Shown: positions 6,392 through 54,580 of the stretch, in pieces | How positions within the stretch are numbered: the stretch's first letter is position 1 | Layout: every line of letters starts with the position of its first letter | Origin: Malacoraja senta | Taxonomy: Eukaryota | Assembly (NCBI GenBank): GCA_038087875.1 | Contig: CM075991.1 | Coordinates: 1,364,001-1,428,000, forward strand | Length of the DNA: 64,000 nucleotides | Direction of reading: 5' to 3' | Made by a program: the position numbers and the translations under genes | The notes under the pieces: model-generated | What the model saw: only the letters and a program-made list of their open reading frames with translations | What the model was told of the DNA's origin: nothing | Databases searched by the model: none

Positions 6392-7499
6392 ATCACCGGT
6401 TACATCTATACAACCCCCACATCTTTCTATTGAGACTACTCTCTGCAGCTCCTTTCTTCGCTTATCCCTTCCCATCCAGCCTACCCCCTCCCCAGGTCCT
6501 ACCCCATGCAGTTGCAGGAGACAACACCTGTCCCCACAGCGGGTCGGGCAATATATCTAGAGAAAATGGATATGTGACGTTTCGGGTTGGGAACCTTCTT
6601 CAGATTCCTTACAAATATCTTACAATATTTACAATACCTGGTCATCCGAGATTCCCAAGGCTTGCCATCCATATCTTTCATCCTCACAGGAACATGTTGG
6701 TCCTGAACTCTAACAAGCTGGCTGTTAAAATTTAGAACCTCTCTTTTCACTCAAATGGCCTCTCCCATCCAACCTCTCAAGGTTCCTGCCCAATACTGTT
6801 GTTATTAGCCTTCTCCCAATTTTGCACTTTTATCCATATCCGCACCCATCTTACAACTCATGGGATTATCATTACTATTCCCAAAATGCTCCTCCACTGA
6901 AACCTCAATCATCTGGCCAGGTTTATTCCCCAATAAAGATCTGGTATGGCCTCATCCCTCTCAATAAACCTTCCTGGATGCAACTAATAAATTCTTCCTC
7001 ATATAAGCTTCTGACACTAATAGAGTCTTAATTAACATATAGGGAAGCTATTATCAATCATTACAATACTGTTGTTTTGCATTGCTTCAATGAGGTGCCT
7101 CCATTCAGTTCCTTTAGTTCCAGCTGGGTATTGGGAGCTCCAAGTAGTGTAATCCCCTTATAATGATGGTGCCTTTTTCATTCCCGAGTTATATGCAAAT
7201 GGCCTCACTGGATGAAGCCTCCATATCGTCTCTAAATGCACCTTTGATTTCCCCCCCTGTTCATAATGCAACCCCCCAGTCTGAAGAAGAGTCCCAAGCT
7301 GAAACACAGTCTGTCCATTTCCCATGATAAATTACAAATAACTTGTACTTGTGCTATATCTCCAGGATAAGTGCTCAACTAAGAAAGCCAACCCCAAAGC
7401 CAAAGTATTGTCTAACTATCTAACTAAATACACCAACTTACAATAAATAACTGTATGCAAAAAACAGCTACCTTCATATTAACTAGCTCTTTAAAAAAA

Positions 7500-10400
7500 A
7501 ACGAATCCTGTGGATGCAAGTATGTCATTGGGGTTATCGTGGGCACCTCCCTTCACTGGTGTTTTGTTGAGTTAGGTCCACAACACCTCGGGAAGGCTCA
7601 ACAATTGGTTCTGGCGTTCCAGAACAATCCTCCTCAATGCCTGCTTTCACCACCTATGTTACAAGTATCTACTAAATAATGGAAGTTGCAGCCAATTAGT
7701 TCACACTAAATGCTAAACACCTGCATCCTATTTCCAACTTATCCTAGCCCATAATTAAGCTTGTAACATCACAAATATCACCCTTGTATACACTTACACA
7801 GACTATAATTACAAAGCAATACACATACTGCCTGTCATACGTTTCCTTTCTTCCCCCAACTCATTTTATTTATTCTCCACCAAATCCACCTACTGCCTTG
7901 CTCTGCTGCCTCTGACATCTGCTTTATGGCCTGACGCAAACTCTGTCCACAAATTCCTAGCTCTCAAAATAGCGACGTGATCGATCTCACTATGAAACCT
8001 CTGCAACCCATCTCTACCGGACATACTCTTGCTCTCCATCCTCGCTGCTCAACATCTGCTGCCAGCTCTACATATCTTTTTCCTTTCATAAGCTCATCCA
8101 CTAAGTTCTCCCAAGCCACCGTCAGTTCTATAAAATACACCATCCGCTGAATAAGAGACCATAACACTATATCAGACCTCAAACTAGTACTAATTATTTC
8201 CTGCAGAACAACAAGCTCTCCTCCCAAATCTATCTGCATCTCACAATCATAGGCTCCCAGTAACTGGCCTGATTCATGTCTGTCTGCAAACTTCCCTCCT
8301 CTACTTTTCTCTCACTCAGACAAATGAATCGTTACCCTCAGTCCTGATGGCGACTGAATTCACATGCTCTCCTTCTCTCAATTGCTGCAGCTACTGTATG
8401 CACTTCAAGATCTGGTTATGCCGCCATGTATACAGACCCTGAGAAAGACTAGTCCTACATCCTGACAAAATATGCCTCAATGTTGCCACCTCTGAACACA
8501 AGGAACACGCCGCGTTCTCACCTACCGCGTTTGAGGTTCTGCGGTGATGGCAGCACATCATAAATTGCCCTTGTACGGAAACTTACATGACCCGCCTCCA
8601 TACACCACAGGTGCCTCCAGCTAAACCTCCTTTTCTACACTTTCCCAGTTCATCCACTGTCCCTGCTTAACCCGAGCTACTGCCCTTATACATCTCACTG
8701 CTTCCTCCTGACAACGTACCTGGTCTACAACCAATTTCCTCCTCTCTGTTGGACCTGCCTTACTCAACATTGGTTTCCCTAAGCCTCCTTTCCCTTGCTG
8801 CACCCTACCAACAATGTCTGTATGGCTCAGAGCTGCTTGTGCTTTTTCTACTGCCTGCTTTGTTCCACTTTCTCCCTCTACTTATACTTGGCACCAGATT
8901 ACTAATCAAGCTATCCTTGCGCCCTGATAATTACAACTCTAACCTCACCTTCGCACACTTAAACTCCTCTGATAGACTAGACAATGGTAAATGGAGAATA
9001 CCTTTTCCATATAAAGTCACATTACTAAGACACCGTGGAACTCCAAACCATTTCCTAATATAAGAACTAACCAATCTCTCTAACCTTTCCACCATAGAAA
9101 TTGGCACCTCATATACTGTCAAAGGCCACATCAATAGCCCAAACTGCAAACACCAACTTGCCTGGAGGCCCTGACTTCTATATCCTTTCTAACCCATCAG
9201 TAACATATTTTCTAAATTGCTTAACCTGTTCCGTGTCATCCAACTTCCTGTTATACCACCTACCCAAACTTTTAACTGGTTTCTCCATTATAGATGACAT
9301 TTCTTCATCATCTACATAAAACCTTTTGTTTACTACCTTTCCTCTGACCAAAGAAATACTCCATGATTTACTAGGCTTCATCTTTATGCTATCATTTAAC
9401 TTCTCTAATAACCTTCTTGTACAAGTTACTGTTGTGGTCACCAAGGTCATATCATCGATATGGGCCCTGATTGGAGGGAGGCGCAGCCCATCCTGCCGTC
9501 TCTCCCTGCCGACGACCCACCGTGATGCTCTAATCACTAGATCCATCAGCATAATTTTTTTTTTGTAATGTAAAAAACTGTAGTAAATGAAATTTCGTTC
9601 AAACCTAGGTTTGAATGACAATAAATAGCATTCCATTCCATAATACCCACCCTTCTTTCACATGAAGAAAGTCTCTGCCATGCTGATATAAAGTCTACTG
9701 TACCTAAACACATTCGGACATCTTGGAAATATGCTTTCACTAAATTTACTATCGATCCTGGACCTCTAAAGAAATCAAAAGCACTCCAAATAAGACTACG
9801 TGGCACAGATCCAAACACATTTGCCAGGTCCAAAAACAATACATGCAAATCTGTCATTCGAGCTTGGCTGTCTGAATCTGGTGCCATATTATGCTAATGT
9901 GTTCGTCGCAACCTGTGAAACATGGGATTCTTGCTTTCTGCACTGTGGTATCTATTAACCTGTGCCTTTCTAAATAGCTTGCCAGCATCTGTGCCACTAT
10001 GCTAAATAAAATCTTGCCTTCTACATTTAGGAGACTAAACTGACCCAACTCTGAAGACATTTTCTTTTCTCCGAGGGAATGAAAATTCCCCCTGCTCTAC
10101 GCCAAACCCCTGGTATGACCTGCTTCTCCAAAATCTATTCACAAGAGCCTCCACAAGAATCTAAGCACATCAGATGCACTTTTATATACCCGGTAAGGGA
10201 CTCCATTCGGCCCTGGGGCTGAAGAAGCCTTTGCACGCCTTATTACTGCTTCCACTCCAGTGGCAAAACATCTAACTTACACTCTATCTCTCCTAAGGGT
10301 GGTATATCTGGTGGGGAAACCCCTTCCCCTTTTCTTTTCTGGATCAGAGTATGTCCTTTTTTAATATTCCTCCAACTCTTCCTTTGAAGCTTTGAGCTTT

Positions 10401-11617
10401 TCACCTTTTTTCTGCCTAAACATTCTTTAAACAAATTTAAATGGATCCCTATAAAATGCTGACCTGATTCGCTCCTTCTTTCTCTTCCTCCTAAGGTGTT
10501 CTGCCCTCCTTAATATCGCTAAGATTTCTTAACTCTTCTTGCAAAACATTAATTCCCTCTCTCAACTGCCTCCTCTCCTTCACTAATCTCTTGATTTATC
10601 TCGTCTAACCACCTGTAGAGCCTGCACCTTTTTCTCAATAACACCAAACCTGTCTGCACCATATTGATAAATAATCTCTCCCATCTTCTCTAACTTGCTT
10701 TCCACTGTCCCTTTCAGACTCTCTAGCACCTTTACCAAATCTATATTAGTAGTTTCCCATTCCTTTCTTTCATTTGCCCCAGGCCATTTAACTCTAGGTT
10801 TCAGCCCACCACTCTTCTCCCCGACTGGCAGATTAACCTCACCACCCCCTCTACAGCACTTGTTCCCACCTCATCAGTAGCAGGGATAATATCCTGCGAA
10901 CTGTGGTTTTCTACCTGTCGCTGGACTTCACTCGACTGACTTCTCAAGAAGTACTGCTCAATTGTAGACTAAAGTGTTGGAGTAACTCAGCGGGTGCAGC
11001 AGCATCTATGGAGTGATGGAAATAGGCAACGTTTCGGGCCGAAACCCTTCTTCAGATGAAGTGTATTTATTTTAACGCGAGGATGTACAATGTTATAGCT
11101 ATTATGGAAACAGTTGTGAGAAGGGCAATATTGGCAGCTCAATATTCAAGGGAACAGATGTTAACTAATGTTTCCATATCAACCATCAACTATTCAAACT
11201 CCACTGAGTAGGGTCTAATCTTACTCAATGTTCCATGGTTTAATATTGATGACATAGTGCAAGATGTAAAAGGTGGGTGGGGGGGGGGGGGGGGGGGGTT
11301 TGAAGAAGGGTTTCGGCCCGAAACGTTGCCTATTTCCTTCGCTTCATAGATGCTGCTGCATCCGCTGAGTTTCTCCAGCACTTTTGTCTACCTTCGATTT
11401 TCCAGCATCTGCAGTTCTTTCTGAAGTACTGCTCAATGCTATTTCCATGCACTCCCTCTAACAAGCATGATCTATTCTGAGGCCCTTTGCTATTGATACT
11501 TTCTGCCAACCACAAGAACAGACCTGGAGCTTCTTTCCCTCTACCACGAAGCCACGGTCCTTCATTGATGCGCTGACTGCCTGACCCTAGGAAATCCTCC
11601 AGAGCTTTGTTTTTTGC
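7500..11617 (-). mobile_element. Degraded near-full-length HERO-like (R2 superfamily, RLE endonuclease) non-LTR retrotransposon
   Basis: In order from the 5' end: a CSCGW zinc-finger remnant (~11510), LLNVEGKILFSI, LDLANVFGSVP, AHIDDM (YMDD equivalent), KPVKSLGRWY, CSLC...HILSGC...WRHNQ knuckle (~8420-8510), and the RLE SDIVLWS..IELTVAWE..K..RY..PVEMGCRGF. Many frameshifts; ends approximate. Confidence 0.8.
10963..11422. mobile_element. Fold-back Penelope-derived insertion carrying a captured inverted copy of local DNA
   Basis: 15-bp TSD GAAGTACTGCTCAAT at 10948-10962 and 11423-11437; inverted arms 10963-11057 and 11300-11422. Confidence 0.85.
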
Positions 11618-12004
11618 ACCCCCCCCCCCACCTTTTACATCCCACACTATCATGTCATCAATATTAACCTATGGAACATTGAGTAAGATTAGTCCCTACT
11701 CAGTGGAGTTTGAATAGTTGATGGTTGATGTGGAAACATTAGTTAACATCTGTTCCCTTGAATATTGCCCTTCTCACAACTGTTTCCATAATAGCTATAA
11801 TATTGTACACCCTTGCATTAAAGTAAATACACGTCAGACCGTCAATTCTGTCGTGTTCATTAACCTGGCTCTGTCTGTTATTGCTATTAGATGTACTTAA
11901 CTGAATCTCTAACCTCTCCTCACTCACTCCATTTGCTTCTCACCCGCACATCGCGTAGTTTAAATGCTCCCAAGAGGCACAAGTAGCCAATGTTAGATAC
12001 AAAC

Positions 12005-12108
12005 CCTGGTCTCTCTGAAATGGGTCTCAAATTTAATGTTGTCTTCAAAGTCAAGTTCAAATACTTTCTTTGGTGCCCTTTTCCTGTTTTTATCTGGGAT
12101 AATATCAC
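12005..12108 (-). CDS. NCAPH: NCAPH exon 11
   Basis: 104 nt; (G)DIIPDKNRKRAPKKVFELDFEDNIKFETHFRETR; strong polypyrimidine tract upstream. Confidence 0.93.
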
Positions 12109-12438
12109 CTGAAGAAAAAAAGAAAAAATATTGAAGGTGTTTAGAATCAATAACTTCCACTGAAAAGATCTTTTTCATGCAACATTAGTACCAATTACAA
12201 TTTCCCATTGCACTTCAACACAATGTGCAAAATTGCCAGAAATTAAACTGTCAAGAAACTTTTAAAATCATGCTTTAAAAAAAAAAAAGAAATACAAATG
12301 TAAACAATGAGAATAAGGTACTCTGCCTTCAAAAATAATTGATTTCTTGGATTGTTTATTCAGAGTAAATTTAACAAGTTGATTTGGCAGCACCTGTGGT
12401 ACTGGATTTGACTCGCGTGAACCAGTTGTCATACTTAC

Positions 12439-12587
12439 CTTTGTGTCGGGCTTTAAAGTGCCAGTGATTAGGCCCTGCCCACATTCTCATTATTCTGGGA
12501 CTAAAATAGGAATATTCCCCAGGCTGGTTTGAAAGCTGGACACTTAGGCTGCTGAAATCCACATCTGTGAGCGGAATAACTTCTTTA
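12439..12587 (-). CDS. NCAPH: NCAPH exon 10
   Basis: 149 nt; (S)KEVIPL...QPGEYSYFSPRIMRMWAGPNHWHFKARHK; donor G|GTAAGT. Confidence 0.95.
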
Positions 12588-12836
12588 CTATGAAACACAA
12601 ACAATGTCAAAAAAGTGATTTCTAATTAAAATATATTCAGATCAACAGATTTTCAATGCCTCTTGATACTGCTCTTCCCGAGTGTCCTTAACATACTGAT
12701 GGACCATTTTATACCCTTTTTGTTTTTAATCCCAATTGTAACAGCATAAATCAAAAAGCATTTCCACTTATAGTTGTGTGGAACAATGACAATTTTTATG
12801 ACACATAAATGTTTCTGTAGCCGGCGAAACGCTTAC

Positions 12837-13045
12837 CTCCCTTGATCACGATTCACCGTATAGGCTTCTTTCTGATCATGGAAACCTTGCCCAATAAAAT
12901 CTTCAGCATCGTCACAAACATCCCCGTCAAAGTCATCCATCAGAGCGTCACAGACATTTTGCTGATCATCTGCAAATTCTGGCTCTGCATTCACGTCAAA
13001 TAAGCGGTCACTCTTCTTGAATTTCTCCAATATGGAAGTAACAGC
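12837..13045 (-). CDS. NCAPH: NCAPH exon 9
   Basis: 209 nt; AVTSILEKFKKSDRLFDVNAEPE...DDFD...NRDQG; donor AG|GTAAG. Confidence 0.93.
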
Positions 13046-13156
13046 CTATATCGCAGACATTCAACAATGTAGAATAATCAATGTGTGCACATTCTGACAA
13101 ACAAAAATATTAACAGATTGAATACAGCAAGGATGAGATTTGTGAAAAGACATTAC

Positions 13157-13242
13157 CTGATTGTGTGCTTCACTGTCCCAATTTGTGAACTGAAAATCTT
13201 CAAATGAAGGACAAATTGTCTTGTTTTCCAGAGAGTGAAGGG
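13157..13242 (-). CDS. NCAPH: NCAPH exon 8
   Basis: 86 nt; (A)LHSLENKTICPSFEDFQFTNWDSEAHNQ; CAG acceptor, GTAATG donor. Confidence 0.93.
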
Positions 13243-15515: not shown

Positions 15516-16626
15516 CAATAACATACATATCCCAGATGTTGAGCTTTCTCCTTGCAAATCTTCTCAAATACAGGGGCAACAGGAGCCACCCTCCTGCACG
15601 TTCGCCATAGCTAACGACAATTCATACTCAGCCAGAAATTGGCTATTTCTTCTCTGGGTTTGCACAGTATCCTCAGATATATCTGATCAGGCCCAGGAAA
15701 TGTATCTACCTTCATATTCCTAGGTTATTTAGTACTTTGTTGGCTGCCCTCAATACACCTCAATTATCTGTCCCAATTTCCCTAGACCTTTTATTTCCAT
15801 GATAAAAGTAGGGGAGAAACACTCATTGAGGACCTTGCCCAACCTCTGTGGCTTCACACATAGATTCACACTTTGGTTTTTGAATGGTTGCCCTCTTTCC
15901 CTTAATGCACTTAAAATATTCAGACTGAAGAAACATCATCTGTCCTTTTCGCTCCACAGATGCTGCCAGACCCAGAGTTTCTCCAGCCCTTAGTTTTCCT
16001 TTGCTCCAGATTCCATCACTTGCAGTCTCTTGTGTCTATATGAATATTATTTCCTGTCAAGGATTAGCTATGGAGAGTGTACATTTGGTATATTTGTTAT
16101 ATTTATAGGAACAGAACTGCAGATGCTGGAATCTGGCACAGAGCAGAGTACTAGAGTAACTCAGTAGGTCAAGTAGCATCAGTGGATGACATAAGAATCC
16201 AAAGTCACCTATCCACATCCTCCAGAGATGCTGCCTGACCCCTGAGTTACTCCAGCACTCTGTGATCTATGCCACTCATGGAACATATGCTGGAACAGGA
16301 CCAGCGTAAAGAAACACAAGAAAATGATTCTTTTCTGGAAAAAACTCACAGGGAAATACATTTATACTCACTGCTAGATAGCTTAGTCACATCAGGAGTG
16401 TACTCACCATCTGGTGAAATAAACCAGTGGATTCTAGGGCCAGCTGACACTAATATAACAATTGGTCATTAGCGACATTCCCACACCATACTGGAGACAA
16501 ACCCACCCCAGAAGCTGCCCACCCCAAAGGAAGTTGACAGTTAATATTATTGGAATAATTGTGGAGCTATCAGCAGCTTGGCAATCATATTAACTATCCG
16601 ATTAGCGATAATTTTGTTAAACTTGC

Positions 16627-16813: not shown

Positions 16814-17014
16814 CTAAAAAGATACAAGGAGTATACAAGGAATAAATCTCATCTGCAATGATTTCCGTGTTAATATTTTTAGTTATCTTTGTAAATCCGA
16901 CTTGCATTTCACATTTATTTTTTGGCAAAACTTTAATAAATTAATTTTCCATGGATTGTAACCACATAATTGAATGGGTCAAACGTACAAAAATCCATAC
17001 ATCAAACTCCACAA

Positions 17015-23900: not shown

Positions 23901-24101
23901 CGTGTAAGAAGGAACTGCAGATGCTGGTTTAAAACGAAGATAGACTCAAAATGCTGGAGTAACTCAGCAGGACAGGGAGCATCTCTGGAGAGAAGGAATG
24001 GGTGACGTCTGAAGAAGGGTCTCGACCCAAAACATCACCCATTCCTTCTCTCCAGAGATGCTGCCTGTCCTGCTGAGTTACTCCAGTATTTTGTGTCTAC
24101 C
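23901..24101. mobile_element. Palindromic Penelope-derived insertion
   Basis: Inverted arms around a degenerate hammerhead motif (24009); TSD ATCAGCCTGG at 23891-23900 and 24102-24111. Confidence 0.8.
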
Positions 24102-28345: not shown

Positions 28346-28836
28346 GGTTACTAAACCATTTGTTGTCTGAACATCAGTCTGAAGGGTCTCGACCCAAGAC
28401 GTCAGCCACCCCTTCTCTCCAGAGATGCTGCCTGCCCGCTGAGTTACTCCAGCATTTTGTGTCTATCTTCAGTTTAGCATTTGCAGTTCCTTCCTACACA
28501 TACATCATTTGCTATGTAATTGCTTGCTAAACTTGTGTTTTAACACTCAGAAATTTGCATACAAGGTCATTCAGATCCCCCAAACACGATTATCTTACTG
28601 TAACACGCATTTCCTACAAAAGTGTTAAATCACACATTTTCCCAACTGCCTGCCCATGCCCATTAATCTAGCCTGTTTTTACCCCCAAAATCCTCTCTGC
28701 ATCCTTCTTGCAAGCCACACTGAAATCTGGTATTTTATCAGCAGCAAACATGCAGCCAGAGGAAGTAGCTGAGGCAAGAACAATAATAATATTTAAAAGA
28801 TATTGGTCAGATACATGGATAGGAAAGTCATGGATA

Positions 28837-29563: not shown

Positions 29564-29710
29564 TGTAGACACAAAATGCTGGAGTAACTCAGCGGGACAG
29601 GCAGCATCTGTGGAGAGAAGGAACAGAGATGCTGCCTGTCCCGCTGAGTTACTCCAGCATTTTGCGTCTACCTTCGATTTAAACCAGCATCTGCAGTTCT
29701 TTCTTACATA
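29564..29710. mobile_element. Palindromic Penelope-derived insertion, centre deleted
   Basis: Long inverted repeat gtagacacaaaatgctggagtaactcagcgggacaggcagcatct / agatgctgcctgtcccgctgagttactccagcattttgcgtctac. Confidence 0.8.
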
Positions 29711-30236
29711 TCCTGATACTATGTCCTGTGCAACCATTAAAGGTACAATTGCTGACAATTATTTTTTACCTTAATGTTTCTTAGCTCCATGCAAAGTGAT
29801 TCCACTTTTTGATTTTATGAAATGAATACGTCTGCAATACTGGCTTTATCCCACTCTTTATAATCAGTTACCACACCACTAGAGTAGTTTACTTCTGAAC
29901 CATGATGCTTTGCTGCAAAATAGTTATGAATTCAAGATTAACCCACGTGGAAATTATATCTCGTGTTATATTTGTGCATTTTCATATAGTTTAGTTTAGT
30001 TTAGAGATACAGCGCGGAAACAGGCCCTTTCGCACATTAACATTATCCTATACCCACTAGGGACATTTTTGTTTCCTAATCTGCCATTACTGCTGGGTGG
30101 TCAAAATGACAAGCAGCAACAATGCTGTTCTACACTGAGACAAACCATCAATGGATTTTGTGTTAATTGCTGATTGATTGCCCGTGGCCACCAGTATGAT
30201 GTTCAAAAGAGCCATTCTAATAACTATCATTTTTTT

Positions 30237-33348: not shown

Positions 33349-33478
33349 GATCAGTCTGAAGAAGGGTCTCGCCCCGAAACGTCACCCATTCCTTCTCTCC
33401 AGAGATGCTGCCTGTCCCGCTGAGTTACTCCAGCATTTTGTGTCTACCTTAACCAGCATCTGCAGTTCTTTTGTGCAC
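33349..33478 (+). mobile_element. 130-bp Penelope-derived unit with an intact minimal hammerhead core, inserted in a CR1 tail
   Basis: 13-bp TSD AGCGGAGTAGACT at 33336-33348 and 33479-33491; CTGAAGA 33356-33362, GAAAC-GTC 33376-33383. Confidence 0.8.
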
Positions 33479-34109: not shown

Positions 34110-37100
34110 GGACTTCCGGTGGCGCCATGTTACGGTAACAGACGCAACACCTAGCTCCGCTCCTGAAAATTTGCAATTTTTCGCGTTAAAATCGGGTCTA
34201 CTGGTCGGGACCGATTAAAAAAACTTACCGGAGCCTCTGGATGTCGCGCTGCGGACGTCATCAGTAAGCGTGGTGAATTTAACGGAGTTTAAAGCCTTTT
34301 AAATGAAAAAATCGTCTCCTGCTCCTCAAAGAACAGTCACAAGACACCTCCTGAAAAGCCAGACGAAACCTGAAGAATTCACCTCTGAAGTGGTCCCTGA
34401 AGTGGTCTCTGAAATGACTACAAGATCCAAGACTGAATTGGCTAAAGACAAAAACAAAGAACTTGAGGAATTAAAGAAATCGGTAAGAGAAATGAAAGAT
34501 GAAATTGTGGATGGAAATAATAAAATGATGGAAAAAAATGGAAAGGATGACGGAGAATATGAGTGCTGGTAATCAGAAAGTTATTGATTCAATTGGCATC
34601 ATAAATAAACGAATTGATGATGTGAAAGGAGAATTATCGGAGAGAATTGATAAGGTGGAAGAAGTTTCCACGGAGAAGTTCAAGGCTGTGCTTGAAACAG
34701 TCGCTTCATATCTGACTACAATGAAAGAAATGGAGACAGATATGGTACGAATGGCTGAAGATATGGAGAGAACAAGGCTAGAACAAGACCACACCACAAG
34801 ACAGATGGCGATTCAGCTGGCGAAAGTTTCGGATAAATGCCTTGATCTGGAAGCTCGTTCGAGACGCCAAAACCTAAGAATTGTTGGAGTGTCAGAGGGA
34901 GCCGAGGGAAATGACCCTCGTGAGTTCGCTGTGGACTTTCTCAAACAACTGCTTAATCTCCCCACTGAACCGAAAATTGAAGTGGCACATCGAGTACCGA
35001 GATTTATACCAAGATCAAAAATAAGACCAGACCATCCACGACAGATCATTGTGAAATTTCGGGACATTTCAGACCTTTAAGACGTTATGAGGAAAATCAA
35101 ATATGGAGTGCAATTGATGTTTGGTAAGGACTCTATCAAACTATTCAGGGACTATCCTTATGAAATTGTACAAAACCGGAATCAGTTTTCAAAGACAAAA
35201 CACATTCTTCAAGGAATTCAAAATGTTAGATACATTGTTTTTTATCCAGCTAAGATGCGGATTACCTACAATGGAAAAGAAAAATCGTTCATAAACCTGG
35301 AGGATGCATACAAATATGCCCAAACCATCGTGGAAGAGAATGCCGCCTAAGGAAGGTAGCTGGAAGGTATGGACGGTATGGACAAATCTTTCTCTTTATT
35401 ATTCCACAGTCATCGGCTGAACAGAAGTGAAGAAACAGTTCTTTTAGTACTTTAAAAAAAAAAACTAAGATGGAGAAATGTTCCATGTGCGCCTCTAGAC
35501 TCCTTATCTGTGGAATTTTAATTCAAGGACATTCTGTGTTCCAAGCGAAGCAAAGAGAGAATAACACGGGAACGACGAACTGAAGAGCAGAATGTGAAAT
35601 ACACCAGAAGCAATTACTGTTGTTTAAGAGATTAAAATACTAACTGAAATCACACAGAACTAACACTTTTAACAATATTAACATAGAAATATTAATGGGT
35701 GCTAACCAGAATTGCAGAATGGGGAAGAATTTAAACAAGTATTACAAAGAGGGAACATCCCTTTTATAGAGGGCGATAGTTGATAAGGAAATAACTAATA
35801 ACAAATTTAAGAACTAACACATATAATTCAATAAGTTTCAGTCTTATCTATATTTGGGGGGAGGGGAGGAGAAGCGGGCACCTGGCTCAGATCCAGGAGC
35901 CTGTTTCAGGTTAACCCCTTCAACCAACAGTTGATTATTATTGAAGGTATAACCATACGTTTAAACACTTAGTAGATAAAAATGTTAGATATATATGATA
36001 AGTCATAACGAAATATATACATATATGGTAAATGGGTGCTATACATTTGATTTGAGGTCCCGTTCCATTATGTTATGAGTAATTAAGGGAGCGGAGCTAA
36101 TTGTTTAATATCGACAATGGAAGTCGATACAACGTTTTCTCCCACCTACAGGTGGGCCACTTGTTACAGTGTCGACAAGTTTAGACACTGTATTTTCACT
36201 TTTTCAATTTTTTTTAAATCACAAGTCACATGCTTGTGCTTTTTGTTTAAGGATAATCGTAAAAGGGATCTACCAATTGAACTTTGTAGCGCAAAGGTTC
36301 CCCCATTATCTAAAGACCTGAGGTTTGGATGCACCGTAAGATTTAAGGGTATTAAAACCATTCAAAATGCAAGACGTTAAACAAAAGAAACTGGGAGGAG
36401 TCACATTCTGCAGTTGGAACATAAGGGGTGTTAATAAACCTATTAAAAGGGGTAAGATATTAGCTCAGCTGAAATTGTACAATACAGACATCACCTTTCT
36501 ACAAGAAACCCATCTCAAATCCCAAGACCAGGCTAGATTGAGGGCGAATTGGATAGGCCAAATATATCACACTTCATTTACTTCGAAATCTAGAGGTACG
36601 TCAACCATTATTCGTAAAGGCATACCATTTAAAGCAAAGAATACCATAACAGATAAGGAAGGGAGATATTTGATAGTTACCGGAGAGATCCACGCTTCCC
36701 CAATCACCTTGGTAAATATATATGCGCCCAACTTTGATAATCCTTGTTTTTTCAATAAATTGTATATATTAATCGCAGAATCTAATTACCAAAATGTTAT
36801 AATTGGAGGAGACTTTAATTGTGTTTTAGATCCGTATTTAGATAAATCTAGGCAAAAACAGAGAGGTAATACGAAATCTAAAACTAGTGAACTCTTAAAT
36901 ACATACATAAAAAATACCAATATACAGATGTTTGGAGGATCGCGAATCCGACCGGCAGGGAATACTCGTTTTATTCAATGGTACACAAAACATACTCACG
37001 TATAAATTATTTCCTGGTGGATACAAAATGAATCCCCTATACTTCGAACCCAAAATACCATACCAACTCGATCTCAGATCACTCCCCGCTAACTTTCTTT

Positions 37101-40100
37101 TTAAAATTGGAAGGAATGTCTAAGAATAAATCGTTTTGGAGGTTTAATCCTCAAATTTTAAAAGACCCACAAGGGAGTATATATCTAAAACAACAAATGG
37201 ACCTCTTTTTCGAAATAAATGACACTCCAGATATATCGCCCACTTTATTATGGGAATCCTTCAAAGCATTTATTAGAGGCGTTATAATTTCATACCAAGC
37301 TTTTCAAAATAAAAAGAACAAGAACGAACAAAGACAGTTAGAAGAACAAATTAGGCAACTGGATATAGATAATGCTAAAGATCCAACTATGGATAAACAC
37401 AATAAAATATTAATACAGAAATTTAAATTAAATAAATTATTATCAGCCAAAGTTATAAGACTATTCCAAATCACAAGACAGGAACACTTTGAATTTGGGG
37501 ATAAACCCCACAAACATTTAGCACGTCAGCTAAAAAAACGAGAAAAAGAACACACGATCCTAAAAATTAAATCAGATAGAGGGGAATTATTAACTTTACC
37601 GAATTATATTAATAAAAGATTTGCGCAATTTTATGAGAATTTGTACACATCCAAAACGACAACGGACACCAATAAAGTCACAGAGTTCTTGGATAATTGT
37701 AATCTTCCAGAATTAGAGTTGAAGGAACAAGAGGAATTAGTAGCACAAATTTCAATTAAGGAAATAGAAGACACAATAACTTCATTAAAGAATGGAAAAA
37801 CACCAGGACCTGACGGATTCAGTAATGAATTTTATAAAAGTTTTTATGACATAATTATACCACGTTTACAGAAAATGTATACATATGCCTTTAAAGAACA
37901 AACATTACCTGAAACACTAGCAGAATCAACGATTACATTAATACTTAAAAAAGACAAAGATACAGAAGAACCCGGATCATATAGAGCTATTGCGTTGTTA
38001 AATACAGATCAAAAAATATTAGCGAAAACATTAGCTAGAAGATTAAGTAAGTATGTTAGTAAATTAATAAATCCGGATCAAACGGGGTTTATCCCTAAGA
38101 GACAATCATTTAATAATCTGAGACGTCTGCTCAACATAATGCATTCACATAAAACTGAAGAACAAGAATTATCAATGATTTCGTTGAATGCAGAAAAAGC
38201 ATTTGATCAAGTGCAATGGGATTACATGGTTAAAGTATTGCAAAAATTCCAAATGGGAGAGAATTTCACCCTATGGATTAAATTATTATATAAAAAGCCT
38301 ACGGCTAGAATATCAACTAATATATTATCTACGAAATTCCAATTATCAAGGGGTAATAGACAAGGATGCTCATTATCACCACTGTTATTTGCTCTTATAT
38401 TTGAACCTCTAGCGGAAAGAATTAGAACACATCCGAACATCCATGGCTATAATACAAAATATTCAAATAATAAAATATCTTTATACGCTGATGATGTACT
38501 ATTGTACATCACAAAACCTCAAACTACTATACCAAACATATTAAATTTAATTGAGGATTTTGGATCCTTTTCTGGATACAGAATAAATTGGAACAAAAGT
38601 GAAATTATGTCACTAAAACCGAAAGACTCAACACACCTCTTAAAATTCCCTTTTAAAATAGCTATAGAAAAATTTAAATACTTGGGTATTGAAATTACCA
38701 GAAAATATCAAGCCATGTTTAACGCAAATTATAATCCTCTACTTAAGAAATTAAATACTTTAATTAAATTCTGGAAAACGCTTCCGATGTCTTTAATATG
38801 CCGAATAAATGCCATAAAAATGATCTTTTTACCACATATTCTATACCTATTCCAATCAATTCCTATATACCTACCAAAAAGTTTTTAAAAAACTGGATTC
38901 AGACATTACATATTTTATATGGGATTATAAATCCCATAGAATACAAAGAACACATTTGAACAAACCTAAAGTATTAGGTGGTTTAGCACTCCCTAACTTT
39001 ATGTACTATTATTGGTCAGTAAATATAAAAAATATGATTCAACTGCTGGACAACTCTGCCCAGCAGGTGGATTGGATTATAATGGAGAGAGAGGACTGCT
39101 CCCCTTGTAATATTGGAGCGATCCTCCTCTCACCAATGAAGTTGAATAACACAAACTATAACAAAAATCCAATTATACATAGTACAATTAGAACTTTGAA
39201 ACAAATAAAACATAATTTAAAATTAAGAAATCTATCGCTCTTATCTCCAATAGCTAATAACTCTTCGTTTAAACCCTCCATTATAGACAAATCATTTACA
39301 AAATGGGAAAGAATAGGAATTGAAACGTTTGGAGGCTTGTATGAAACTGGAAAATTTAATATCATTCCAACAATTACAACTAAAATATAATCTGGGAAAC
39401 AATCAATATTTTAAATATTTTCAAATATGTGATTATCTGAAAAAATATACACAAGATTATTACAATATGCCATTAGATTTACTGGACGAAGCAATGAAGA
39501 CAAAAGCTGAATCAGCAAACTTCAGATTCAGATTCAGATTCAGATTCAACTTTATTGTCATTGTGCAGTGTACAGTACAGAGACAACGAAATGCAGTTAG
39601 CATCTCCCTAGAAGAGCGACATAAATATGAGCAGTAAATAAATAAATCTAATAAATCCTGGTGGGAGGAGTGTCCGGGGGGGGGTGTGATTGGCAGTCAC
39701 CGAGGTACAGTGTTGAGTAGTGTAACCGCCACAGGGAAGAAGCTGTTCCTGGACCTGCTGGTCCGGCAACGGAGAGACCTGTAGCGCCTCCCGGATGGTA
39801 GGAGGGTAAACAGTCTGTGGTTGGGGTGAGAGCAGTCCTTGGCGATGCTGAGCGCCCTTCGCAGACAACGCTTGCTTTGGACAGACTCAATGGTGGGGAG
39901 TGAGGAACCGGTGATGCGTTGGGCAGTTTTCACCACCCTCTGCAGTGCAAAACTTAATATCATATTTGTATAATATTATTTTAAATGTAGAAATACCAGC
40001 AACGGGTGGTATTAGACTGGGAACAAGAATTAGCTATTAAAGTTTCAAAAGAGAGGTGGGATGAACATTTATTAAATGTGCACAAATGCTCGATTAATGT

Positions 40101-45110: not shown

Positions 45111-45137
45111 GGCAGCTCCGCTTGTGCCTGGCTTATT

Positions 45138-47417: not shown

Positions 47418-47794
47418 TGGCTTATTAAATCTCCCATGCTTCTCCACCTTTCAGCTCTACAGTCTCTAATGAAACTAACCAGCCCTTATTCTAACATTTG
47501 CTTTTCACATTTCCCGGGTTCCTCATCCCCTTAGCTCTGTTGAAAGACTGGTTTGACTACAGCAGGCATATTAGGCAGAAATTATTCTTTAGAAATGTGG
47601 ATAAACTGAAGAAGGTTGTTCTCAGAGGAGATTGCATGGAGATCTGATAGAGGTATTTAAAAAGGGTAGGGGCAGAGTAGGTAGAACCCTCACAGAGAGA
47701 AGGTGTAAGTAATAGGGAAGACAAAAGTAACATGATTTGCAAAAATCGGAGTAACAATTTGTTAAAACAGCAAGTGGTTAGGGTATGTCAAAGA

Positions 47795-49891
47795 CAGGCA
47801 CGTGCCGTCAGGGTTAGGCACTGCCTACCCTGACTGAAATTATAACATGGTAATTACTAAACATAAATAGTAAAGGCATGGGAGAATTAAGCCTATCTAA
47901 GAGATCGATCTCTTAGGTAGGCATAATTCTCCGTGCCTTTCATCCGCAGTACTTGTAACCCTTGAAGGTCTGTGCAGCCCACGTGCCGTCAGTGCTCCCT
48001 GAAGCCGTCAGTTTCAAGCGGGGCTGAAGGCAGCTGAAATTCTGCTTTTGCAGCACTGCGCAGGCGCAGCAGCCTACTGCGCCTGCGCAGCGCGAGTTTC
48101 TTGGCGGGGTTTTCAAATATGGATTGGCATTATTTTAAGTGTATCTTAGGAAACAGAGAGAGAAGAATGGAGCTCGTGTACCAATGATGTGGTAAGTACA
48201 ATTCTTGGTGATGTTTTTAAATACCGTATTTCCCGGGATGTGGGGGTGGGGGGAGAGCTCCTTTCACAGCTTTTGGGGAGTCTGGCCCGGGGTAAAGTTG
48301 CGAGGAGGGTAGGAGCGTTGTGAAGGAGGGGATCTGGATCATACCAGTAACCCACTTGCGATGCTCCTTTCACGGAGCCACCGCATTGTGGGGGGGGGGG
48401 GGGGAATAGCTCGGGTGGCTGCGAGCGGCCGCCGGAATGGACAGCGGATCTGGCCGCCACCTCCGCGCCTTCTGCCGGCCCCCGCTCAACTCTGGCAGCT
48501 CTCAGTCTAAAAACCTCTCTCCTGCCGCTCGCTGGCCCCACTCATGTCAGCTTCCCGCAAACCCTTAAATTCCGACAGCGCGATTGAGATTGTGTTAAAG
48601 AAGGAACTGCAGATGCTGGAAAATCGAAGGTACACAAAAATGCTGGAGAAACTCAGCGGGTGCAGCAGCATCTATGGAGCGAAGGAAATAGGTAACGTTT
48701 TGGGCCGAAACCCTTCTTCAGACTGATAGGGGGTGGGGAGAAGAAAGGAAAAAAGGAAAAAGGCGGAGGAGGAGCCCAAGGGCTGGGGGAGGGGAGGAGA
48801 CAACCAGATGGCTGATGAAGGGGAGGGGACAGCAAGGGCAAGCAGAATTGGGAGAATTCAATGTTCAAGCCCCCAGGATGTAGACTGCCCAAGCGGAATA
48901 TGAGGTGCATTTCCTCCAATTTACGGTGTTGCTCGCTGTGGCCATGGAGGAGACCCAGAACAGAGAGGTCAGATACGGAATAGGAGGGGAAGTTGAAGTG
49001 CTGAGCCACCGGGAGGTCAGGTTGGTTATTGCCTCCAATTTACGGTGTGGCTCAGCCCCTCCCCTTCATCAGCCATCTGGTTGTCTCCTCCCCTTCCCCA
49101 GCCCTCGGGCTCCTCCTCCACCTTTTTCCTTTTTTCCTTTCTTCTCCCCACACCCTATCAGTATGAAGAAGGGTTTCGGCCCGAAACGTTACCTATTTCC
49201 TTCGCTCCATAGATGCTGCTGCACCCGCTGAGTTTCTCCAGCATTTTTGTGTACCAGCGCGATTGAGATTACTCGGCTGTGGGAATTGAAGGATTTGCAG
49301 GAAGCAGCTGACATGAGTGAGCGAGCGGCAGGTGAGAGGTGTTCAGACGGAGAGCAGTGCCGGAGGTGAGCGGGCCGGCGGTAGGCGCTGAAGTGGCGGC
49401 CAGTTCTGCTGTCGGGTCCCGGCGGCCGATCGCAGCCACCCGAGCTGCTTCTATCCCCGGCTACAATGCGGTGGCTTCACGCCTGGAGGGCTGCTGCAGC
49501 GGTGAGTGAGTTACTGGCATTATCCCCAACCCCCTCCTTCTCAACACTCCTGCTCTCCCCGCAACTTTACCCCTGGCACTGACTCTCCACACACTGTGAA
49601 AGGAACTCTCCCCCCAATTGGTCCCTTGAACAAGTGTTGTCATTCAATTAGATGACAACATTCAACTTTTCCCTGTGCTCCCGTTTTTCCCACCATCTCT
49701 CCACCTGCCATCACCCTTCACCCCCCACCCATTCAGCAATTCAGAATAAAAGATACTAGGAAGCCTTGGGCAAATTGAATTGTTCTTTTTTTAAATTTTA
49801 CGGAGAGAACAATCTGCGCATGCGCGGTTTAAATTATTTTTTAAAGCTGACTGACTGCCTACCTTGAGTAATTACTCACGGCACGTGCCTG
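47795..49891. mobile_element. Non-autonomous hAT-type DNA transposon
   Basis: 14-bp perfect TIR CAGGCACGTGCCGT; 8-bp TSD GTCAAAGA at 47787-47794 and 49892-49899. Confidence 0.9.
48592..49254. mobile_element. Penelope-like element 3' fragment with inverted pseudo-LTR
   Basis: 16-bp TSD CAGCGCGATTGAGATT at 48576-48591 and 49255-49270; GIY-YIG C-terminus (AQHFN...RKLEE.HLIFRLGSLHPGGLNIEF) on the minus strand; inverted arm 49052-49254. Confidence 0.9.
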
Positions 49892-50406
49892 GTCAAAGAG
49901 GACTCTCTCGAACTTCTACAGGTGCACAGTGGAGAGCACGCTGACTGGTTGCATCATGGCTTGGTTTGGCAACCTCACGGTCCAGGAGCGGAAAAGGATG
50001 CAGAAAGTTGTGACCACTGCCCAGTCCATCATCGGCTCTGACCTCCCCACCATTAAAGGGATCTATCGCAGTCGCTCTCAAAAAGGCAGCCAACATCATT
50101 AAGGACCCACACCATCCTGGCCACGCACTCATCTCTCCGCTACCATCGGGCAGAAGGTACAGGAGCCTGAAATCTGTTACATCCAGGTTCAGGAACAGCT
50201 GCTTCCCCACAGCCACCAGGCTATTAAACTCGCCAACAAACAGACTCTGAACTGTAACAGCCTATTGCACTTTATCTGCTTATTTATGTGTATATTGAAC
50301 TGAACTGTTCTGTATTTTTGCTAACAATATTCTGTTGTGCTGCTGCAAGCAAGAATTTCATTGTCCTATCTGGGACACATGACAATAAACCCTCTTGACT
50401 TGACTA
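49892..50406 (+). mobile_element. Rex1-type LINE 3' fragment
   Basis: NFYRCTVES..TGCIMAWFGN, LPSGRRYRS..RFRNS; tail gacaataaa..(CTTGA)n. Confidence 0.85.
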
Positions 50407-50529
50407 TGGAATGCACCATCCTGGATTGTATGGGGGCAGATTCAATGATGTCAAAGGGAACATGGATAAATATCTGAAAGAAAATAATTTACTGAGCTAT
50501 TGGAGACCCAATTAACAAATCCAGCTGGA

Positions 50530-51379
50530 TTGACCACCCCCCCACACACACGCATGAATCACCCCCCCACACACACACTAACCACCCCGCTTGATATATT
50601 AATATTATTCATTCGCTCCTTTCACCCCATCCCCACCCTATCCACATGCATAGCCCCCAACTCGCAGGCACGGCTAGAGAGGGAGAGCGAGAGAGAGGGC
50701 AGGGCAGAGAGAGGGCAGGGCAGAGGGAGGGCAGGAAAGTGGGAGGGCGGGGCAGAGAGGGAGCAGAGGGTGGGCAGAGGCAGAAGGGGGGGGGGGCAGA
50801 GAGGGAGCGGGGGGGGGGCAGAGAGGGAGGAGAGTCGAATTTGAGGAGGGGGGGCGCAGCGCGCGGGATCACAGGGGTGGCTTGGTTCCTGAACGCAATA
50901 CTCCCTCACTCCGGCTCCACTTCTGCCCACGTCGTCGCCGGGCTCGGGGCTCGGCCTGCGGCACAACCTCCCCGCCCTGTGCCGACCCAGGGCAAGTACA
51001 GGGCCCGACTTGCTCGTTCTTTTTGCGTCTTTTGAATTACCAGGGCGGAGGAGGGGGAGTTATCGGGGGGGGGGGGGGGGTGACATCACCCGCAGCATGA
51101 GCAAGAATGGCATGCGGATTAGACCCATTATGACGGCATCAGCGAAAGACAGTAGTTTTTATTTCAACGTTTTGTCAGATTTTTGAACATTTTCAGTAAT
51201 AACTCGAGAAATAAAGCATGACATTTTCAGATGAGGCTGTTTTGGACTCCAGGGGGGAAATCTCCACTGGAATATGTACATTTTTTATTGTTACCGTGTA
51301 GTTTTTTCGAGAAGATGTGATCACACACGAACAAACAAATACACACACATCCAAGATCAGACTTTTAATAGTTACTAGA
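50530..51379 (-). mobile_element. Non-autonomous Helitron-like element (3' end missing)
   Basis: 5' end TCTAGTAACTATTAAAAGTCTGATCTTGG; colinear homology with 51380-52421. Confidence 0.7.
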
Positions 51380-52421
51380 CTAGACCAAGTGGGACCCGTT
51401 GGGTCCCGTCCCCTCAACGCGCGGTTGCGGGGGCGGCCTGCGGTATCACACACTAACCACCCCCCACACACACATACTAACCCCCCCCCCCCACACACAC
51501 TAACCACCCCCCTTGATATTATATTAATATTATTCATTCGCGCCTTTTATCCCATCCCCGCCATGACCACTCATGCATAGCCCCCAACTCACAGGCATGG
51601 CTAGAGAGGGAGGGAGTAGAGAGAGCGAGGGCAGAGGCAGAGGAGCAGGGGGCAGAGGCCAGAGGCATAGGGCAGGAACAGAGGGCAGAGGACAAACGTA
51701 CCTGGTAGAGGCAGCGAGTAGAGGTAGCAGGTAAAGGCAGTGGGCAGAGACAGAGGGCAGAGGTAGAGAGCAGAGAGAGAGGCACCAGATAGAGGCAGAG
51801 GGCAGGGGCAGAAGCAGAGGCCAGAGGTAGCAGCTAGAGGGCAGAGGACAGAGGCAGCAGGTGAGGCAGAGGGCAGCGACAGCGGCAGCAACCTCCCCAC
51901 CATGTGCCGACACGAGGACCCCGAGCGAGGGAGCGAGGAGACGAGAAGGCGAGGGTTCGAGGGGGCGGGCAGATGAGCGAGCGCGCATTGACCAAAGGAC
52001 CGCGAGTTGGACTGCCCCAGTCTTCAGCTATGATCTTTGGTCTTCAGTCCAGGGCCCGATTTCATCTCGGGCTGCATCTTTTGAATATCGGGGGGGGGGG
52101 GGGGTAGGAGGGAGGGGTGACGTCACTCACAGAGCGAGGAAGAAGGCACGCAGACCCATTGTGACATCATCAGCGAATGACAGTCATTTTTAAATTCCAA
52201 GTTTTGTCAGATTTTTGAACATTTTCATTAATAAATTGAGAAATAAAGCATGAAATTTTCAGATAAGGTGCTTTTTGGACTTCAGGGGAAAATCTCTACC
52301 GGAATATGTAAAAATATTATCATTTCTGCATCGTTTTTTTGCAAAGATGTGATTACACACAAACACAGAGACACACACACAAATAAATACACATCCAAGA
52401 TCAGAGTTTTTTAAGTATAGA
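51380..52421 (-). mobile_element. Non-autonomous Helitron-like element
   Basis: 3' hairpin GGGACCC-AAC-GGGTCCC (51391-51407) lies 7 nt before the terminal CTAG (51380-51383). 5' end TCTATACTTAAAAAACTCTGATCTTGG. Internal (GGCAGA)n-type repeat. Confidence 0.8.
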
Positions 52422-52609
52422 GGTATAAAGTTCATTTACAATGTGATTATTATACTTCAGTGTAACCTTTTTGCGTTGCGAAAAAGCTGTTTGTTCGACT
52501 ATCAATAAAATTCTTGACATTTCTATGAAAATTTGATGTGTGATGCTCTTCTCATTTCTCAGTATTGTTAATCACGGAATTAATTTCACATATATAAATC
52601 ATCATTTAT

Positions 52610-53218
52610 TTAGATCAACAAAACACGCAGGGGGATTCCTAGTGAAGTTTCTAAAGGCACTCATCTTCCCGCTGGAGATCAGTCATCAGTCATCTCACAC
52701 TGGCCCAAAGTGGGACTCATCAGGAACAAGGACCTCGTCCACACAGACCTCTTCCTGGGCTTCTCCCTCCCCTTTCTTGTTGTACTCCTGCCTGGCTGAT
52801 CTGTAAGCACGAGGGCTGCTGCAAGCAGAAATCTTTGTTGTTGTTGTACTAATAACGATGCAATCTGTAGTTGCTCTATGATAGTCATGATGCAGAATAG
52901 CATCCTGCAACCACTTTTGTAGGGAAGCTGGTCAATCAAATGACGTCACGCGCCCCAGATGACGCAACCTGTCGTATTTTGCCATATCGTATCACGGGTG
53001 GACGTACATTGCCGCCGCTTGAAGGCTGTGACGTCAGTCGCTGTCCTATGCTGTCCAATGGTGATGCGCGCCGTCCCATGGTGACGCGTGAAAATTGGTG
53101 ACGCACCTTGACGCAGCTGTGTTGCATCCTGTCGTACTACTTGGCGGTTGTCAGGCGACATCGGGGTCAGTCACTGACGGCCGTCGTCGCCCATAAAATC
53201 GCAAAGTGTGACAGGCCC
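52610..53218 (-). mobile_element. Left end of a PIF/Harbinger transposon with a degraded transposase N-terminus
   Basis: TIR GGGCCTGTCACACTTTGCGATTTT; frameshifted RKRSVWTR...PTLGQCE / LMTDLQRED / AFRNFTRNPPACF, typical of Harbinger DDE transposase N-termini. Confidence 0.65.
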
Positions 53219-53326
53219 TTTTGTGTATTTTTCATCTCCGCCGATTTGTGTATTTTTCCTATATAAACCAGCATTTACAGTTCCTTGTGATTCCTCTTGG
53301 ATTTCCCTGGCAGCCCATTCCATTAA

Positions 53327-53573
53327 GGGCCTGTCCCACTTGGCGATTTTTTCGGTGACTGCCGGCATCATTGAGTGACATATCAGGTCACCCAAAAATA
53401 CGCGCCGTGATGACATATGATGCGGCGGTGATGTGGCGTGATGACGTATGACGCGCAGTGTTTTTTTCAAGTGTCGGAACATTTTTATTGTTGCCGCTGG
53501 ATTTTGAAAAATGTTCAAAATTTTTTGGCGACACTGATATGACGCCGGCAAAATCGCGAACTGGGACAGGCCC
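53327..53573. mobile_element. 247-bp MITE of the same Harbinger-like family
   Basis: TIR GGGCCTGTCCCA / TGGGACAGGCCC, flanked by TTAA on both sides; internally palindromic. Confidence 0.85.
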
Positions 53574-53577
53574 TTAA

Positions 53578-54580
53578 CATTCCGTCCCCTACTCCCAATT
53601 CCTCTGTCTACGCAGCATCTGCACCCAGGATGAGGTGTTCCAAACCAGGTCATTGGAGATGTCTTCATTCTTTAGGGCATGGGGGTTCCCCTCTTCTACG
53701 AAAGATAAGGCTCTCACCAGGGTCTCTTCTATACCCCGTAACTTTGCTCTCACTCCCCATCCCCCCCACTCATAACAAGGGCAGAGTCCCCCCTGTCCTC
53801 ACCACCAGCCGTCACATGCAACAGATAATCCTCCGACATTTTCGCCACCTCCAACGGTTTCCCAACACTGGCCTCATCTTCGCATCTCCTCCCCTTTCGG
53901 CTTTCCGCAGACTGCTCCCTCCGTAACTCCCTGGTCAATTAGTCCCTTCCCACCCAAACCACCCCCTCCTGGTACTTTCCCTTGCAACTGCAGGAAATGC
54001 TACACTTGACGCTTTACCTCCCCCGTTGACTCCATCCAGGTGCGGCAGAGGTTCACCTGCACCTCCTCCAACCGCATCTATTGCATCCGCCGCTCTAGGT
54101 GTCAGCTGTTCTACATCGGTGAGACCAAGCGTAGGCTTGGCGATCACTTCGCCCAACACCTCCGCTCGGTTCGCAATAACCAACCTGATCTCCCTGTGGC
54201 TCAGCACTTCAACTCCCCCTCCCATTCCGAATCTGACCTGGGCCTCCTCCAAGGCCAGAGTGAGGACCACCGTAAATTGGAGAAGCAGCACCTCATATTT
54301 TGCTTGGGTAGTTTACACTCCAGCGGTATGTACATTGACTTCTCCAATTTCAGGTAGTCCTTTCTCCCTCTTTCCCAACCCCTTCCCAGCTCTCCTACAA
54401 CCCAGTCTCAGCCTCTACTTTTCTTCATCCCGCCCCCCCACCCCCACATCAGTCTGAAGATGGGTCTTGACCCGAAACATCGCCATTTCACTTTGCTCCA
54501 TAGATGCTGCCTCACCCGCTGAGTTTCTCCAGCATTTATGTCTATCTTCGATTTTCCAGCATCTGCAGTTCCTTCTGAAA
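53578..54580 (+). mobile_element. Penelope-like retroelement 3' part: RT thumb, GIY-YIG endonuclease, hammerhead-bearing terminal repeat
   Basis: FTCTSSNRIYCI..SRC..FYIGETKRRLGDHFAQHL...VAQHFN...RKLEKQHLIF (54040-54357); CTGAAGA..GAAAC at 54454-54478. Confidence 0.9.

Follow-up and report, generated by a model that had tools for sequence, protein, structure and literature searches.

The locus and the parent element

The DNA analysed here comprises 64,000 nucleotides of contig CM075991.1 (positions 1,364,001 to 1,428,000, forward strand) in assembly GCA_038087875.1 of Malacoraja senta, and it holds remnants of a Penelope-like element (PLE) together with short units derived from the end of that element, some of which carry a hammerhead ribozyme motif. 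This 64-kb stretch is called the window, and all counts refer to it unless a public sequencing run or a related locus is named. The motif is probably a minimal type-I hammerhead in the pseudo-long terminal repeat (pLTR) of an endonuclease-positive, Neptune-type PLE, the short units being ordinary products of its insertion. Positions within the element are counted from C3 of the ribozyme, taken as 0, which places the predicted scissile bond between +27 and +28; ribozyme nucleotides follow the standard hammerhead numbering.

The parent element is represented by an open reading frame (ORF) remnant detected by tblastn at 53578..54357 (+), which spans the reverse transcriptase (RT) thumb, a decayed CX4CxxC linker and a GIY-YIG endonuclease and matches residues 180-451 of the whale-shark protein P0004 at 42% (E 6e-56). 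This remnant is 5′-incomplete and interrupted by stops and frameshifts. Its segment at 54010-54354 shows 57-76% identity to elasmobranch proteins, with the best matches in skate and ray (69-76% to Leucoraja). The Pfam GIY-YIG match of the remnant is weak (E 0.032); the homologues P0004, P0010 and P0015 carry both RVT_1 and GIY-YIG matches, and the linker is intact in P0004. An RT core occurs only in an older relic at 3995. A CX2-5CxxC linker marks Neptune or Nematis elements and not Penelope or Poseidon (PMC8557442), so the CX4CxxC linker points to Neptune or Nematis. Since the vertebrate PLEs of bioRxiv 10.64898/2026.07.22.740005 were Neptune or Poseidon, the parent is inferred to be of Neptune type, a clade assignment that comes from the linker and not from an RT tree.

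The stop at 54357 is followed by a pyrimidine-rich tract (54358..54447, +), by the ORF-linked minimal hammerhead recognized from pattern and pairing (54454..54481, +) and by an aligned pLTR end with the full tail to +128 (54482..54582, +), for which no target-site duplication (TSD) was found. A first-pass annotation of the window had placed this hammerhead, in near-intact form, directly after the GIY-YIG ORF. The copy is present, but it begins 97 nt past the stop, beyond the pyrimidine tract, and the palindrome of its helix III is broken by a change of G16.2 to A. The long arm at 48592-49032, described below, provides the second ORF-linked copy.

An element of about 255 bp with 28-bp inverted ends (26/28 alike) lies at 53323-53577, and a related repeat is found at 53166-53220; as the former abuts the PLE remnant, 53578 may not be the true 5′ end. 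An older, decayed PLE ORF relic, at 34% to P0004 and split by a long interspersed nuclear element (LINE), occupies 3995-4560 and 6432-6530 (+). The unit at 6531-6630 sits within this older relic, and the decayed core at 7281-7308 is possibly its 3′ end (3995-6530).

Hammerhead copies and their pairing

About ten copies of the motif had been reported, and all ten were found in their places, together with an eleventh, previously unlisted remnant at 15920-16031 (+) whose helix II is deleted; the observation is confirmed, with the corrections given here. A motif-shaped pattern with at most one mismatch gave seven matches (three exact, four with one mismatch) against a mean of 0.00 and a maximum of 0 in 100 shuffles, although the pattern was derived from the window copies themselves, so that this excess shows repetition and not function. 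A generic hammerhead core pattern matched nine times, four of the matches being foreign to the family. An Rfam scan recovered no hammerhead family among its 14 window matches up to E=5, the top matches being fold-back artefacts of inverted units. Exact motif scans of viral and metagenome contigs gave 0 matches, and a protein scan of viral contigs gave 0 of 46 candidates.

The motif contains the core C3UGANGA9 ... G12AAA and U16.1-H17 as in minimal type-I PLE hammerheads, as well as a helix II in which G10.1 pairs with C11.1 and A9 is followed by an unpaired base. Pairing was counted over nine gap-free copies, the copy at 28379 being omitted for its 3-nt deletion. The helix II pairs hold in 9/9, 8/9, 7/9 and 8/9 copies, while in helix I U2.1-N1.1 is paired in 9/9 and G2.2-N1.2 in 7/9; a third and a fourth pair are formed in only 1/9 and 2/9 copies, respectively, showing that helix I is only 2 bp long. 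The helix III palindrome C15.2-G16.2 is kept in 6/9, and the three copies that lost it are without the G of a CpG. These counts bear out the earlier description of a minimal type-I PLE hammerhead with a 2-bp helix I and a palindromic helix III. The copies at 6576, 11028 and 33356 had been called intact, which is correct for the core nucleotides but not for the helices: the first has a helix II mismatch and no G2.2, the second also lacks G2.2, and the third has a helix II of 3 bp. No copy in the window is perfect in the core and all helices, 33356 coming nearest. Elsewhere, G12 is changed to A in the core at 48694-48721, and C3 to A in that at 49163-49190.

The metazoan PLE pLTR hammerheads of PMC4209133 share the CUGANGA core, the extra nucleotide after A9, G10.1-C11.1 and a palindromic 15.2-16.2 without loop 3. 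Helix I, at 2 bp in the window, has 4-5 bp in Schistosoma and 2 bp in D. virilis (PMC4209133), and helix II of the window motif has 4 bp. According to the same paper, minimal hammerheads are carried by the fish PLEs Xena, Poseidon and Neptune, and PLE hammerheads occur mostly as dispersed singles and as close opposite-strand pairs from truncated PLEs; its main text, apart from the supplements, names no cartilaginous fish.

Conservation in related elements

Relatives were taken from the best 80 of 288 related metagenome stretches. Of the 38 loci in which the ORF end was mapped, 14 carry the same minimal core, under a strict pattern, 61-142 nt beyond it. An alignment of 23 rows combined 7 of the 10 window copies with 16 of 30 locus matches, leaving out the window copies 7281, 24009 and 28379, ten minus-strand locus matches, and L002, L024, L045+ and L051. 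A covariation analysis gave a positive result for helices I and II: pairing holds in 83% of cells vs. 57% after shuffling and 22-41% in slid controls, and the double changes number 53 vs. 19.7, a value reached in 0/500 shuffles. The innermost helix I pair holds in 23/23 rows with 15 double changes, and G10.1-C11.1 is G-C in 23/23 rows, the rows having been selected for helix II. Because helix I, which was not used in row selection, covaries, the predicted hammerhead fold is real at the level of the PLE family.

At L019 and L032, a full PLE ORF of 1139 and 1049 codons (stop to stop), respectively, begins at the ribozyme, suggesting that the motif marks the front of the message of the next unit. 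At L001, the ORF is preceded by a pLTR copy of 130 nt in inverted orientation. The first methionine of the long ORF falls inside or just before the ribozyme core (L032:323-349, L019:319-365), as in the Anolis element.

Architecture of the short units

The inverted two-arm insertion at 48592..49254 is bounded by a 16-bp exact TSD (48576-48591 / 49255-49270). Its long arm (48592-49032, −) contains the GIY-YIG C-terminus, the core 48694-48721 and the full tail, and its short arm (49056-49254, +) contains the core 49163-49190 and stops at +91. The filler between them (49033-49055) repeats 26 nt of ORF sequence from the element itself (24/26), which suggests a template jump. A second inverted two-arm insertion (10963..11422, 15-bp exact TSD) has cores at 11028-11055 (−) and 11300-11327 (+) in arms that begin at about −1 and −2. 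Its 241-bp filler (11057-11297), joined through short microhomology, is an inverted copy of local DNA at 11619-11836, about 200 bp downstream, with 87% identity. A spliced host-exon chimera was considered for this unit and rejected, the filler being local DNA with no GT donor. The unit at 23901, previously described as a TSD-flanked unit, is indeed TSD-bounded (13 bp, one mismatch), but it proved to be a head-to-head pair (23901..24098) with one mutated core, at 24009-24036, in a plus arm that starts at −2; in the minus arm, the start is about 3-5 nt ahead of the scissile bond.

The single unit at 33349..33476 (+), with a 15-bp TSD (one mismatch) and a start at about −6, holds the least damaged core (33356-33383). 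The tail unit at 628..731 (−), with a 13-bp TSD (one mismatch), had been counted among the retrozyme-like units but contains no ribozyme: its element sequence begins 1 nt past the predicted scissile bond, behind four unrelated nucleotides. Also ribozyme-less are an inverted pair at 29567..29712 (12-bp TSD, one mismatch) and an old tail at 58049..58145 (+), whose 11-bp TSD (one mismatch) is borderline, 28 of 400 random boxes scoring as high. Together with an old inverted pair at 16110..16270 without an intact ribozyme, the units 628, 29567 and 58049 make four that lack a usable one. The remaining copies are a short unit at 28373..28499 (+) that starts at −6 and has no clear TSD, its core 28379-28403 carrying the 3-nt deletion; an old unit at 6531..6630 (−) with the core 6576-6603, a start at −1 and a 10-bp TSD candidate not above chance; the decayed core 7281-7308, seen by pairing at 7272..7322 (+); and the old helix II-deleted unit at 15920..16031 (+), which starts at about −5.

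Six units have TSDs of 12-16 bp with scores of 10-16, whereas in a random-box control (n=400) 10 boxes reach a score of 10, 7 reach 11, 3 reach 13 and 0 reach 15; no TSD was found for the copies at 7281, 15920, 16110 and 28373 or for the 54k copy. TSD-bounded units measure 97-663 bp rather than the 100-200 bp given earlier. The two arms of an inverted unit differ in where they end: in 4/4 such units with a TSD, the end lies at +91 in one arm and at +122 to +129 in its partner, giving two fixed 3′ ends about 37 nt apart, and the arms of the four inverted units agree at 84/91, 61/64, 46/48 and 193/199 positions. Four of 24 public runs were examined, including X24, a polyA RNA run in which 10,435 of 7.3 million reads were placed; in the public runs, both 3′ ends recur as loose ends with mixed flanks (48593; 48628/48637). 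The earlier proposal that PLE enzymes made these TSD-bounded units is upheld by the 12-16 bp TSDs, the inverted arms and the tail.

The following steps are proposed for their origin. The PLE protein would nick both target strands 12-16 bp apart, as seen in the TSDs. RT would then start inside the RNA at one of two sites, at about +91 or at +122 to +129, yielding an arm with a tail and, in many cases, an inverted one without it; the ends are observed, and the mechanism is taken from the Anolis PLE. Microhomology of 2-4 nt would next join the arms head to head, either with one another or with local DNA that has been captured, as at 11k and 24k. In Poseidon_Ac of Anolis, likewise, two internal RT starts bound the tail, both target strands are extended and the ribozyme lies at the ORF start (PMC11167929), although Poseidon_Ac belongs to another clade without the Zn linker, and the window ribozyme has no conserved AUG. 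Neptune and Nematis units share the order RT, CX2-5CxxC linker, GIY-YIG, and also the 5′ truncation, the adjacent inverted copy, the 30-40 bp tail, the TSDs and foreign DNA captured between pLTRs; unlike in the descriptions of those units, the window copies are mostly the last 100-130 nt, with 5′ ends clustered at the ribozyme front (PMC8557442, PMC3846280).

The short units had also been interpreted as a separate retrozyme-like family. Non-LTR retrozymes are non-coding and PLE-related, with type-I hammerheads and larger TSDs, features that the window units share; however, they consist of direct repeats arranged in tandem, carrying two or more ribozymes (PMC7229834; bioRxiv 10.64898/2026.07.22.740005) that give rise to circular RNA, whereas the window units are single or inverted and often ribozyme-less. 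Membership of such a family, in which tandem ribozyme monomers yield circular RNAs that re-insert, is very improbable. None of the 68 tandem-repeat rows in the window corresponds to a ribozyme unit, no permuted copy is present, and paired copies are inverted, not direct, so that the family was rejected as a candidate for the window. The 5′ ends vary (+45 to −311), leaving no fixed monomer independent of ORF-bearing copies, and the inverted arms with tail are those of a PLE and nearly identical to the ORF-linked arm. In addition, the core is of the minimal PLE type, while the retrozymes of PMC7229834 carry canonical hammerheads. Besides the type-I hammerhead and the large TSDs, what favors a retrozyme is a set of head-to-tail joints, from 48723 to 48598/48628/48637 (depth 110-170 in X20) and from 48692 to 48633/48637 (depth 381 and 159), and the reported presence of retrozymes in one chondrichthyan (bioRxiv 10.64898/2026.07.22.740005). 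These joints are tiny against millions of summed depth; being few, of low depth and from two runs, they leave rare tandems genome-wide possible. The short units are dead copies of the PLE end and do not constitute a new element family.

Clustering of the 5′ ends

Among 17 arms, a count that leaves out the 7281 copy, seven (in 6/12 insertions) start at −6 to −1, with ends curated by eye; 5′ ends also lie at +21 to +45, −107 and −311. Such clustering was equalled in 0, 13 and 121 of 20000 trials under uniform ranges and in 1 of 20000 under an exponential null for a 6-nt window, and in 11, 253, 1498 and 38 of 20000 for a 10-nt window, 1498 belonging to the narrowest null; as the width was picked after the data were seen, the in-window result depends on the null. 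This start of 7/17 arms 1-6 nt before the core is an under-described feature. A literature search, with poor coverage of subscription papers and supplements, found no description of the clustering or of this skate family, and the supplements of PMC4209133 and bioRxiv 10.64898/2026.07.22.740005 may list chondrichthyan motifs.

Many cDNAs thus stop 1-6 nt before the core, and a tentative explanation, at somewhat under an even chance, is run-off at the 5′ end of a capped RNA that would start at TCAGT before the ribozyme of the upstream pLTR. It is favored because of the clustering, a G upstream of the junctions, the fit to an initiator and the bases shared between subfamilies A and B. Bases −5 to +1 fit the initiator consensus YYANWYY, as do 1.2% of window positions, and they are common to both subfamilies even though −3 to −5 are unpaired. 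Loose ends at −2/−3 occur in all four runs with random flanks (agreement 0.31-0.36, among 24 of 1477 rows listed; 602, 238, 242, 299, 311 and 38 records), and their first loose letter, scored as the majority letter only, is an upstream G in 5/6 rows, each improbable from base composition (0.0002-0.07). An extra G is a mark of cap copying in full-length L1 insertions (PMC11702581, PMC9341517). Depth in all four runs drops sharply at the ribozyme front edge, partly as the upstream tract differs between subfamilies.

Several points count against a capped start at this place. TCAGT is not kept before the ribozyme in invertebrate relatives. Target preference could produce the junction G, and these bases can also be taken for a splice acceptor. 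Transcription of the D. virilis element starts about 120 nt upstream, the position being a 3′ splice site (PMC2377424, PMC4209133). It is quite conceivable, if short of an even chance, that the clustering is unrelated to the RNA start: reverse transcription may instead stall or end prematurely at the entry to the pyrimidine tract, or CAG may act as a 3′ splice site, as at this position in D. virilis. The tract and the CAG right before U2.1 resemble an acceptor, in D. virilis the 5′ edge of helix I marks the end of the intron (PMC4209133), the ends are scattered over −1 to −6, and the G may reflect target-site preference or a subfamily variant. However, CAG is retained in the copies 33350, 28373 and 15920, the local 11k filler offers no GT donor, and no X24 splice joint appears among the 15 of 120 joints listed. 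A stall also fits poorly with X18, where depth falls stepwise and then stays level through the tract with no slope, although contig depth is a poor measure.

A smaller group of cDNAs stops near the scissile bond and might, though this is doubtful, derive from cleaved template. In 5/12 insertions an arm appears to lie within 7 nt of the bond, the old copies being uncertain.

The sharp clustering is also an argument for regarding the −3 to +129 unit as itself a self-propagating, non-autonomous element, i.e., a solo pLTR with an internal promoter that is re-transcribed from short copies and mobilized in trans by the PLE protein; this is the earlier idea stripped of its retrozyme label. In each of the four runs, motif and tail reach a much greater depth than the ORF (about 10-fold in X24; these are not copy numbers), and no ORF-linked copy of subfamily B occurs in the window. 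From the literature, an internal promoter is known for Penelope of D. virilis (PMC2377424), pLTR sequence is enough for trans mobilization (PMC3846280), and once RT starts internally a defined 3′ end is no longer required (PMC11167929). Nevertheless, this reading is rather improbable. Short units of subfamily A match the ORF-linked arm at 48592 (100/101 identical for unit 628; 90-94% for the 11k arms), 5′ ends are also found at +21 to +45, −107 and −311, and X24 shows neither a start pile-up nor a sense excess over the motif. Independent re-mobilization of short copies is possible, the 5′ ends being clustered rather than random.

A joint version, comparably improbable, has the message capped 2-3 nt before the core and a ribozyme-plus-tail module of about 130 nt spreading alone as a non-autonomous PLE that resembles a short interspersed nuclear element (SINE). 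If true, the cap at 2-3 nt before the core would explain the 2-bp helix I, and the module would hold promoter, ribozyme and RT start sites. Uncut RNA (ends at −2/−3, cap G) and cut RNA (ends near +28) would then form two insertion classes, giving a DNA read-out of the frequency of ribozyme cleavage in the germ line.

Ribozyme activity and selection

Within the preferred reading of a pLTR hammerhead in a Neptune-type PLE, the ribozyme could fold only as a weak double hammerhead held together by the ACGU palindrome, and would probably need the PLE protein; self-cleavage is plausible. Several results run counter to this reading. X24 shows no pile-up of read starts or ends at the scissile bond or at −3, and its direction ratio over the motif (0.81-0.92) is near equal, as for passive read-through. 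Differences between subfamilies are not significantly rarer in core than in tail (1/13 vs. 13/98, p 0.49, the one core difference sitting at a CpG; 0/11 vs. 13/79, p 0.16, in a second comparison), with few copies in both cases. Predicted energies are −0.3 to −7.1 kcal/mol for the double-hammerhead helices vs. −16.6 to −26.4 kcal/mol for free dimer folds, and an alternative hairpin buries the core in 3/5 copies folded. Finally, the window contains no full-length PLE and no direct tandem pLTR-ORF-pLTR copy. The predicted probability of helix II in short windows is 0.00-0.31. Private changes number 5/71 in the core and 42/908 in the tail, showing that inserted copies decay neutrally.

That the motif is a vestige whose cleavage has been lost in this lineage is unlikely. 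In favor of a vestige, helix I has 2 bp vs. 3-5 bp in relatives, the predicted fold is weak, the core shows no excess conservation in the window and X24 gives no in vivo trace; furthermore, 8/9 Xenopus dimers failed to cleave (bioRxiv 10.64898/2026.07.22.740005). On the other hand, D. virilis also has a helix I of just 2 bp (PMC4209133), and the Anolis ribozyme, which likewise shows no RNA-seq ends at the cleavage site, cleaves solely with protein (PMC11167929). The common read variants (N1.1 A/G, H17 U/C, U-G/U-A), among 40 of 169 variant rows listed, are all structure-compatible.

The in vivo role of PLE hammerheads is still open (PMC8557442, PMC11167929). As the short copies are very abundant and their 5′ ends gather at the ribozyme front and perhaps at the cut site, this role can be tested by junction counts. 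With an RNA start at the ribozyme front, cleavage would take off a capped leader of about 30 nt, which would point to message control rather than monomer release. As it stands, the window offers an ordinary, well-preserved case of PLE hammerheads and insertion anatomy in a cartilaginous fish.

Neighbouring features

Over the ORF end at 48890-49033, one read direction in X24 exceeds the other 2-2.6×, and, assuming a library stranded in the usual way, this direction is the antisense one for the element. The window as a whole has the composition of repeat-rich vertebrate DNA, with a GC content of 42% and many LINE fragments. Two LINE remnants with ORF1- and ORF2-like frames lie at 34529-39637 (+) and 58484-64000 (+); both are presumably L1-like, and several RT fragments elsewhere are taken to be CR1/L2-like. 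An open frame of 555 codons at 55357-57024 (−) contains Mab-21 domains (Pfam Mab-21_C, E 1e-7) and resembles a single-exon host gene, which we take to be of the ITPRIP-like kind.

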